In this document: positions 38,334-63,722 of the stretch, in pieces
How the letters are laid out: every line of letters starts with the position of its first letter
Numbering within the stretch: position 1 is the first letter of the stretch
IMG/VR virus record: IMGVR_UViG_3300014204_000112
Span: 96,001 to 160,000 of that record
Source of the DNA: a virus
Taxonomy: Duplodnaviria > Caudoviricetes
DNA length: 64,000 nucleotides
Reading direction: 5' to 3' (one strand)
The notes under the pieces: model-generated
Told to the model about the DNA's origin: nothing
Databases searched by the model: none
What the model saw: only the letters and a program-made list of their open reading frames with translations
Translations under genes and position numbers: made by a program

Positions 38334-38513
38334 CCGGCTAACTTTTTCTTCTTATACTATGGACAGAAACAAAAGTTAGTCGGCTGATCAAATTTACCGG
38401 ATGATTATGCAATGTTGGTTGCCGAAAGAGTTACTGCAACTGGAACAGCTGTGTAAGTAGGAGTGGTGAAAGTGTAAGGTCAGCCACCGAACCTGGGTGA
38501 TAAAAAAAATTTG

Positions 38514-38586
38514 AGAGTCCTGTGGGGCTCGAACCCACGACCACGGTTTTAGAGACCGCTGCTCTAACCACTAAAGCTAAGGACTC
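38514..38586 (-). tRNA. amber suppressor tRNA (anticodon CUA)
   Basis: GAGTCCT/AGGACTC acceptor; GCGGT-CTCTAAA-ACCGT; GTTCGAG T loop. Confidence 0.85.
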
Positions 38587-63062: not shown

Positions 63063-63138
63063 TGGAGCGAGAGACGGGGATCGAACCCGCTGCATCCAGC
63101 TTGGAAGGCTGGCACTCAACCAAATGAGCTTCTCTCGC
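63063..63138 (-). tRNA. tRNA-Gly(UCC)
   Basis: CCAGC-CTTCCAA-GCTGG; CCA encoded. Confidence 0.85.
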
Positions 63139-63341
63139 AATTATGGTAAGGGGATTCTCACGAAGGCCCTTACCTTGTCCGGAGGATGGTCGCCTCCAGA
63201 CGTTATGCCAATATTTCCCAAGATGTCAAAGAACATCGTAACTGTAGCGATGTCCTGCTACTCTGTTACTGTGTGAATGAAGTTGGACTCGACCAACGTG
63301 TATTCTCTAATTCACTCGTATTTCAAAAGAACTGATGCCGT

Positions 63342-63379
63342 AAAACGAAAAAACCCGGACTTTTTGAAGGTCCGGGTTT
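63342..63379 (-). terminator. attenuator terminator at the head of the tRNA array
   Basis: AAACCCGGAC/GTCCGGGTTT 10-bp stem followed by TTTCGTTTT. Confidence 0.8.
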
Positions 63380-63410
63380 TCCCTAGATTTCGTGATATGT
63401 TATTTCACCT

Positions 63411-63536
63411 TCACTCTAACCTATGTAAACCCAGACCCATTCTTTCGTCGCATGACGGATTCCATGTGCCAATAAATCCCACGAGGGCTATTGGTTGGGA
63501 ACTACGATACGACTTATGTAAGTTCTGGTTTTTCAT
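63411..63536 (-). CDS. 41-aa leader peptide MKNQNLHKSYRSSQPIALVGFIGTWNPSCDERMGLGLHRLE
   Basis: Below the ORF-track cutoff; GATAAATA motif and A-rich spacer upstream; contains antiterminator strand 63427-63438. Confidence 0.75.
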   Translation of the reverse strand: MKNQNLHKSYRSSQPIALVGFIGTWNPSCDERMGLGLHRLE

Positions 63537-63557
63537 TGGTTTTTGTGTTTGTTCAGG

Positions 63558-63568
63558 TTTATTTATCA
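63558..63568 (-). promoter_or_regulatory. TAAATA (T4 late-like) promoter motif, one of more than 20 copies in the window
   Basis: (T/G)ATAAATA typically 10-40 nt upstream of starts, e.g. near 3222, 9893, 16476, 24110, 27587, 47632, 55313. Confidence 0.6.
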
Positions 63569-63722
63569 CGATACTTCAAAAAGTTTTCGCTTTAGTTTTG
63601 ATATTTTACCACTTTTTTTCTGGGTTGGTCGATTTTTTTTCTTGGGCCACCAAATTTATTTAAGTCGTATGGCGGTAAGTAATCGTCTCCCGTTGGAGTG
63701 GATGTTGTGTTGTACTCTTCAT

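Follow-up and report, generated by a model that had tools for sequence, protein, structure and literature searches.

A probable ribosome-dependent leader-peptide attenuator, conserved ahead of the tRNA array of a large phage

It is an old question what large phages gain from tens of tRNA genes and what controls these genes; codon compensation and escape from tRNA-cleaving defences have been proposed (PMC10264068, PMC11555353). The window studied here, i.e. the whole stretch of 64,000 nucleotides that was analysed, is part of a 213,922-bp viral contig (the same phage is also present on a 292,920-bp contig) and carries 42 tRNA genes on the minus strand, from 63138 to 31662 (ARAGORN). Genes for PRPP synthase, NAMPT, a 470-aa membrane protein, a 230-aa protein and an 84-aa protein lie upstream on the same strand, and the 590-nt gap between the 84-aa gene and the first tRNA gene holds a small module for which a sequence-only reading had made a specific proposal: a translated leader ORF competes with an intrinsic terminator ahead of the array and, through its unusually varied codons, acts as a universal sensor of tRNA depletion. 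The locus raises the question whether such an attenuator heads the array and what it would sense. With moderate confidence, based on the comparison of five lineages, we read the module as a ribosome-dependent leader-peptide transcription attenuator. Its features in the window are as follows.

63603 to 63632, minus strand: candidate sigma-70-like promoter P1 (TCGACC, 18 nt, TG-n-TAAAAT), from a promoter scan
63560 to 63567, minus strand: promoter-like motif GATAAATA, 23 nt ahead of the leader ATG
63519 to 63541, minus strand: segment 1, the start-codon region, which can pair with segment 2; predicted anti-antiterminator hiding the AUG
63411 to 63536, minus strand: leader ORF, 41 sense codons plus TGA, with all 20 amino acids; open at 41-47 codons in five lineages
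63427 to 63438, minus strand: segment 2, the antiterminator strand GGGUCUGGGUUU, codons 33-37, which pairs with the terminator 5' arm
63342 to 63383, minus strand: intrinsic terminator, with 5' arm 63383-63370 (segment 3), loop 63369-63361, 3' arm 63360-63347 (segment 4) and U-run
63218 to 63232, minus strand: conserved box TCTTTGACATCTTGG between terminator and tRNA-Gly, a possible second promoter or RNA signal
63063 to 63138, minus strand: tRNA-Gly(TCC), the first gene of the array, in first position also in relatives

To find relatives, the 230-aa and 84-aa proteins next to the module were searched against 5.8 billion metagenomic proteins and the contigs of the matches were fetched; four further metagenomic lineages proved to have the same gene order. 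The sequences were grouped into the window type (L007, L008, L013 and L014/L018), L020, L022 and L009-L012; L021 and L023 were excluded, their sequences stopping short of the leader region, and searches with DNA patterns recovered window-type copies only (L013, L014, L018 and L019). The leader module stands directly upstream of tRNA-Gly and the array in five lineages in which the flanking 230-aa protein is only 45-73% identical, and each relative keeps the order of leader module, box TCTTTGACATCTTG(G), covarying hairpin, tRNA-Gly (or a decayed copy) and array. The gene upstream of the module has the opposite orientation in L014 and L020, which indicates that the module stays with the head of the array and starts a transcription unit of its own. 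Distant homologues of the 470-aa protein (P0009, P0011 and P0013) have neither a tRNA array nor the module at their locus, which is neutral for this reading. No close phage was found in GenBank or IMG/VR: a DNA search of 50,697 phage records gave tRNA-Gly matches only, tblastn with the NAMPT gene gave nothing closer than 49%, and IMG/VR scans with the 230-aa, NAMPT and 470-aa proteins found no syntenic relatives. Compared across the lineages, the module is a real conserved element, and the comparison documents its conservation, its coding signature, both of its alternative helices and its linkage to the array.

The ORF lies where it had been proposed, at 63536-63411 on the minus strand, with the proposed length, and it stays open in all lineages at 41, 43 or 47 codons. 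From one conserved nucleotide block to the next, spacer lengths change by 18, 3 and 3 nt, and every indel is a multiple of three. The ratio pN/pS is 0.07-0.64 and below 1 in 15 of 15 pairs; between the window and L022 there are 9.5 synonymous changes over 25.7 sites and 13.5 non-synonymous changes over 97.3 sites. The phage does not use Shine-Dalgarno sequences (GGAG-like words precede 2.6% of 193 long ORFs, fewer than in the background), and positions -18 to -11 before its starts are about 55% A, as in Bacteroidota-type translation. Scored over the upstream 22 nt with a weight matrix of true starts, the leader start falls at the 64th percentile of genuine starts, a level reached by 1.2% of internal ATGs, and across lineages the leader starts range from the 50th to the 93rd percentile. 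Frame, pN/pS and start context together point to a short leader ORF that is probably translated, as a leader-peptide attenuator would have.

The same data bear on another explanation, in which the region would yield a structured non-coding RNA, either a small RNA or the start of the tRNA precursor, and the open frame would be incidental. The window-type lineages do conserve the DNA of the region far better than that of the neighbouring protein genes, several hairpins are predicted, and the z-score of the fold is -4.0. Against this, the frame survives at least three indels, there is an excess of synonymous changes, the start context resembles that of genes, and Rfam gave no match at gathering score, the best being Thr_leader at 21.5 bits versus 55 over the terminator only. 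We consider a non-coding RNA very improbable.

Between the ORF and the tRNA genes there is an intrinsic terminator, as had been claimed, with a 14-bp hairpin, a 9-nt loop and a U-run (about -21 kcal/mol). Its 11 core pairs are paired in 8/8 sequences (100% of cells), and 3 pairs are changed on both sides. The pairing proposed for the antiterminator, GGGTCTGGGTTT (63438-63427) with AAACCCGGACCT (63379-63368), was confirmed at 12 pairs including two G-U. The longest unbroken complement to the hairpin 5' strand GGGAAAACCCGGAC, a strand that ends two bases before the 12-bp arm of the original proposal, is 10 bp in the window (shuffle P = 0.0014); in three lineages it measures 10-12 bp and occupies a matching place in the ORF (shuffle P = 0.001-0.002 each), and in all lineages segment 2 ends 13-16 nt before the stop codon. 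The three strands, given as terminator 5' arm, segment 2 and terminator 3' arm, are AAACCCGGACC, GGUCUGGGUUU and GUCCGGGUUU in the window, AAACCCGAGC, GCUCGGGUUU and GCUCGGGUUU in L020, and AAACCCGGGCC, GGCUCGGGUUU and GCUCGGGUUU in L022. Most tellingly, segment 2 changes along with the 5' arm: with the arm as CCCGGACC (window), CCCGAGCC (L020) and CCCGGGCC (L022), segment 2 has GGUCUGGG, GCUCGGG and GGCUCGGG, respectively. Helix 2:3 has three pairs changed on both sides, with compensatory changes in L020 and L022; controls in which the partner is shifted by one to three columns have 0-1 such pairs. The peptide encoded over segment 2 varies among lineages (MGLGL, ICSGL, MGSGL, NYRVN) and the pairing is kept, which indicates that the constraint acts on the RNA.

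Predicted energies agree with a switch between two folds. The antiterminator fold and the terminator come to -27.2 and -21.1 in the window, -21.7 and -18.9 in L020, and -28.1 and -23.2 in L022, and in every lineage segment 2 pairs with the 5' arm in folds made before the 3' arm exists. In the masked folding that had been suggested as a check, helix 2:3 survives masking up to about codon 29 and is abolished from codon 34. A mutually exclusive antiterminator that a ribosome could mask is present, in weak form (6 bp) in L010: in L010/L012 the antiterminator is limited to CCGGGU:GCCCGG, its register shifted by one base (shuffle P = 0.36), and the antiterminator fold, at -16.7, is weaker than the terminator at -18.0. 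In L014/L018 a synonymous CTG>CTA change in the middle of segment 2 replaces a G-C pair of helix 2:3 with an A-C mismatch. Duplexes of segments 1 and 2 have energies of -12.0 (window), -15.2 (L022), -6.4 (L020) and -3.5 (L010); the full-length minimum free energy fold contains helix 1:2 plus the terminator in the window, L014 and L022, and helix 1:2 is weak in L020 and L010. A long-range helix of TCGTGATA with TATCACGA was also predicted and was rejected: it has no compensatory change and lies upstream of the likely start site at the NATAAATA motif. The search among relatives that had been put forward as a further check thus recovered both the module and covarying antiterminator pairs, with covariation in three lineages. 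The core of the original proposal, a translated leader ORF that competes with a terminator before the array, is strongly supported by the five-lineage comparison, through the coding signature, the covariation of terminator and antiterminator, and the constant linkage to the array head.

The promoter motif that had been noted ahead of the leader is GATAAATA at 63567-63560. Genome-wide enrichment of ATAAATA before starts supports it: of its 75 copies, 45 fall in the 40 nt that precede an ORF start, most often at 17-24 nt. The motif is kept in four lineages, and the L010 version is AATATATA; the NATAAATA promoter-like motif is real. Further upstream, a TAnAAT hexamer with a TTGGCC/TTAGCC/TCGACC-like hexamer 17-19 nt ahead of it is found in the window, L010 and L022, and TAnAAT by itself recurs across all lineages; P1 is a putative promoter on these grounds. 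Nine strong terminators occur on the minus strand genome-wide, and no credible terminator was found on that strand from 63342 to 45369, i.e. over about 18 kb past the leader. The NATAAATA motifs found inside the array, ahead of endonuclease genes, could provide a second feed for downstream tRNAs that would bypass the gate, and we do not claim that the leader alone gates the whole array.

All lineages have the TCTTTGACATCTTGG box, at 45-75 nt upstream of tRNA-Gly, with 14-15 invariant nt that include a TTGACA. The box occurs as a single copy in the genome, has no conserved -10 element, and its TTGACA was not called in the sigma-70 scan. The box could be a promoter that bypasses the gate, and a promoter at this place, after the terminator, would mean that the attenuator merely adds to a basal tRNA supply. 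The terminator loop TCAAAAAG and a box in the 5' untranslated region, AAAACTTTT, are likewise invariant; they are complementary over 10 nt in the window, which hints at further contacts. Neither conserved box recurs elsewhere in the genome, which rules them out as a general promoter class.

An alternative would give the ORF no regulatory role: it would be a stand-alone small-protein gene beside the array, the tRNAs would be transcribed from the TCTTTGACA box and internal promoters, and the complementarity would serve folding or stability of the mRNA 3' end or a similar function. The peptide is under purifying selection with a conserved motif (YRS, FIG, W-x-PSC), the promoter spacing is that of an ordinary gene, a strong terminator stands behind the ORF, the conserved box is present between the terminator and tRNA-Gly, and the L010 lineage retains the ORF with little antiterminator, all as expected of such a gene. 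What this explanation accounts for poorly is that segment 2 and the terminator 5' arm covary in three lineages and that the alternative fold equals or exceeds the terminator in stability, since a competitor is useless to a plain terminator. The peptide is unconserved over segment 2, where pairing is conserved, the module tracks the array head and not the upstream genes, and the peptide has no family match. A plain small-protein gene is accordingly judged unlikely.

The leader-peptide attenuator that we favor would work as follows. One or two promoters (the NATAAATA motif and the sigma-70-like -10 element further up) would start a leader transcript that opens with the translated 41-codon ORF. 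Helix 1:2 would be formed by the start-codon region and codons 33-37, helix 2:3, the antiterminator, by codons 33-37 and the terminator 5' arm, and helix 3:4 would be the terminator. An unhindered ribosome reaching the end of the ORF would cover segment 2 during synthesis of segments 3 and 4 by the polymerase; the terminator could then form, and transcription would end some 200 nt short of tRNA-Gly. If held up in about the first 30 codons, a ribosome would instead cover segment 1 and leave segment 2 free to form helix 2:3, and the polymerase would continue into the tRNA genes. Slow decoding would thus probably lead to more transcription of the tRNA genes. It counts against the model that a ribosome footprint at the stop codon would reach only the last few bases of segment 2, so that much would depend on timing. 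That the ribosome throws the switch, in which direction the system responds and what purpose this serves are all inferred. The leader has no codon run and offers 19-20 amino-acid types per lineage, so the likeliest signal is a general slowing of decoding, or loss of one among many tRNAs, and not shortage of a single amino acid.

The conserved residues of the peptide are MK, H, YRS, FIG and W-x-PSC, and they cluster at codons 21-29, directly upstream of segment 2, between variable N- and C-terminal parts. A profile of the peptide searched against 5.8 billion proteins found only the 47-aa L010-type form, already within the query, and PHROGs gave no match, so that no family was found. A further leader variant (N5K, S9A, A17S, V19E, CGT>CGC) occurs in a DNA sequencing run from wastewater and in a single metatranscriptome contig of 151 nt that spans only part of the ORF; it was not counted as expression because the contigs show neither ends nor strand and DNA carry-over is possible.

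The position of the conserved residues, just before segment 2 and with freely varying flanks, would suit a real attenuator that does not read codons or the tRNA set. Such a leader would act by nascent-peptide arrest at FIG-x-W-x-PSC in answer to a ligand or factor, TnaC-like or antibiotic-sensing, or would respond to a trans-acting protein or RNA, for which the invariant, complementary loop and 5' box described above could also speak. On the other hand, no known arrest motif is recognisable, and Pfam-independent searches gave no match. The conserved codons also lie within predicted stems, and RNA constraints may account for part of their conservation. Furthermore, a ribosome stalled with codon 29-30 in its P site would start to cover segment 2 and would favour termination, a less obvious logic ahead of tRNA genes. 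We hold an attenuator of this kind to be improbable, and retain translation speed as the likely input.

Among known systems, the amino-acid leaders trpL, hisL, leuL, thrL and pheL and the multivalent ilvGMEDA leader have a short translated ORF whose 3' part contains the antiterminator strand, and helices 1:2, 2:3 and 3:4 ending in an intrinsic terminator, such that a lagging ribosome leads to read-through (PMC1183508, PMC3082878). The phage leader shares this layout, with an ORF that is probably translated, a helix 1:2 that is predicted in the window, L014 and L022, and read-through as the predicted outcome. Unlike these leaders, the phage leader has no run of codons for a single amino acid, with 19-20 types each present once or a few times; it precedes tRNAs and not enzymes, is phage-borne and makes no use of a Shine-Dalgarno sequence. 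The absence of a run of any codon places it outside the classical amino-acid attenuator subtype, although the mechanism can still match. In the bmrB leader of Bacillus subtilis bmrCD and other antibiotic-responsive leaders, which also have no codon run, generally slow elongation determines the choice between terminator and antiterminator (PMC4191407), as we propose here. These leaders answer ribosome-targeting drugs and induce bacterial resistance genes, whereas the phage output would be a viral tRNA supply. By analogy, the phage leader seems nearest in logic to general slow-translation sensors such as bmrB (PMC4191407). T-box riboswitches likewise let the state of the tRNA pool decide between terminator and antiterminator ahead of translation-related genes, as the phage leader would do; a T-box, however, binds uncharged tRNA directly and needs no ORF, whereas the phage switch is spanned by the leader ORF. 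Rfam T-box models gave no match in the leader region and, with the ORF spanning the switch, a T-box was ruled out.

Leader-peptide control of tRNA genes was not found in the literature, in phages or elsewhere, and the statement that no equivalent has been described agrees with these searches, which returned no published case. An attenuator at the array head would link tRNA transcription to decoding speed in a simple feedback model, and would extend attenuation to tRNA genes, to a virus and to a host group that translates without Shine-Dalgarno sequences. The leader would also be a compact natural sensor of decoding speed.

The composition of the leader is unusual in the window. As had been claimed, all 20 amino acids are reached by codon 31, and there are 31 different codons among the first 32 and 35 among all 41. 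Throughout the genome, 22 of 130,450 stop-free 32-codon windows contain 20 amino acids and 28 contain at least 31 different codons, and among 976 ATG-ORFs the leader alone has such a composition in its first 32 codons; the cut at 32 codons was chosen post hoc. Taken over all 41 codons, with windows from long ORFs of the phage as background, 20 types have P = 0.003 and at least 35 codons have P = 0.0005; in the comparison that had been suggested, the codon diversity of the window leader is rare. By our mapping of codons to array anticodons, the first 32 leader codons call on about 29 different phage tRNA species.

The boldest part of the sequence-only reading treated the leader as a decoding test, in which a stall at any codon, whether by starvation or by a host tRNA nuclease, opens the 42-tRNA array. 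This fared unevenly. Every lineage has 19-20 amino-acid types, as the claim would have it; three variants each lack one type (Trp in L008, Ala in L020, Asp in L012), and the codon diversity of L010, the most distant lineage, is ordinary (32/47, P = 0.18), that of L020 being moderate (P = 0.03). Single codons respond weakly to partial shortage. In addition, the conserved motif (YRS, FIG, W-x-PSC) would be superfluous for a pure codon sampler and counts against the claim. Amino acids that occur once are not better conserved in the lineage peptides than the others: 3/8 of them vary, versus 5/24. The background P for 20 types across lineages is 0.003-0.008; the shared core already gives 12-18 types, and we estimate the chance of keeping the rest at about 0.1-0.5 per lineage. 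The statistics depend for the most part on a single family-level observation, made post hoc and with P about 0.003, and are suggestive. A universal sensor of tRNA depletion as a deliberate design is suggested by the sequences in the same measure, and the any-codon decoding test, which would include all amino acids and most phage isoacceptors, is offered as a tentative and rather doubtful extension of the attenuator. If it were true, the phage could replenish tRNAs on demand without any protein synthesis, and a link to counter-defence against anticodon nucleases would be plausible as an inference in the light of published work (PMC10264068, PMC11555353).

Along the leader, the types are complete by codon 33 in L022 and by codon 37 in L010, and L020 reaches its 19 types by codon 33. 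Types that are lost often reappear elsewhere (Val from 19 to 33, Asp from 30 to 32), in numbers too small to count, and some types shift yet persist: Val stands at codon 19, 33 or 30, and Glu at codon 31, 20, 9 or 37.

In front of the first gene of the tRNA array, tRNA-Gly(TCC), there is a short conserved box:

Window 63218-63232, minus strand: box TCTTTGACATCTTG(G), 14-15 nt, invariant across lineages.

The box occurs once in the genome and is also present in metagenomic relatives of the window type (L007, L008, L013 and L014) and of other lineages (L010, L012, L020 and L022), where it always lies 45-75 nt upstream of tRNA-Gly(TCC). One or two hairpins, covarying from lineage to lineage, lie on its 3' side, and no conserved -10 element was found with it in the lineages compared. 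Promoter, binding site and processing signal are all possible roles for the box. The tRNA-Gly itself is intact in L012 (9462-9537), with a different gene set behind it, while in the nearly identical L010 (9462-9535) the T-arm region of this first tRNA is disrupted and the gene is not called by ARAGORN.

Between the leader terminator and the TTGACA box there is an additional structured stretch of approximately 130 nt (window 63240-63340, minus strand) containing nested inverted repeats, e.g., GTGAAT...ATTCAC and GTTGG...CCAAC. This stretch is found in the window, L007, L008 and L013, and is missing at the same place in L014, L020 and L010; in L022 its place is occupied by a tRNA-like fragment. 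The loop of the leader terminator, CTTCAAAAAG (window 63360-63369, minus strand), matches the reverse complement of the 5'UTR box CTTTTTGAAG (63574-63583, minus strand) exactly, and outside the window type this complementarity falls to 5 (+4) bp, while AAAACTTTT and TCAAAAAG are unchanged across all lineages. The loop is A-rich and 9-14 nt long, which is unusual compared with the 3-5 nt loops of the other strong terminators in the genome.

Upstream of the leader on the same strand, two further coding features were recorded:

Window 63659-63721, minus strand: 20-codon mini-ORF (MKSTTQHPLQRETITYRHTT), beginning directly after the stop codon of the 84-aa gene.
L002 1775-3187 (genome 160775-162187), minus strand: 470-aa multi-pass membrane protein, just upstream.

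Both the window and L007 carry the complete mini-ORF; it starts with GTG in L013, is reduced to its 3' part in L014, and is deleted in L008 and L010. The 470-aa protein, in which no Pfam domain was found, has 271 relatives in a library of 1.84 billion proteins; the genes behind it usually encode proteins of ~212-236 aa and 80-90 aa, and the three therefore constitute a conserved three-gene set.

Across the whole genome, Shine-Dalgarno sites are not used: GGAG-like words are depleted before start codons, and an A-rich tract is found at -18 to -11 of the phage's starts; these start signals point to a Bacteroidota-like host. The metagenome runs carrying the window stretch or the corresponding part of a relative are of groundwater, landfill, wastewater, sludge and lake origin. 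Since more than 5,000 stop-free 32-codon windows genome-wide contain just 3-5 amino acid types, the phage genome includes, at some place, a long region of low complexity or tandem repeats. One further tRNA is of the amber-suppressor type:

Window 38513-38586, minus strand: tRNA with anticodon CTA ("Pyl" according to ARAGORN).

TAG may be decoded as a sense codon in some phage genes.
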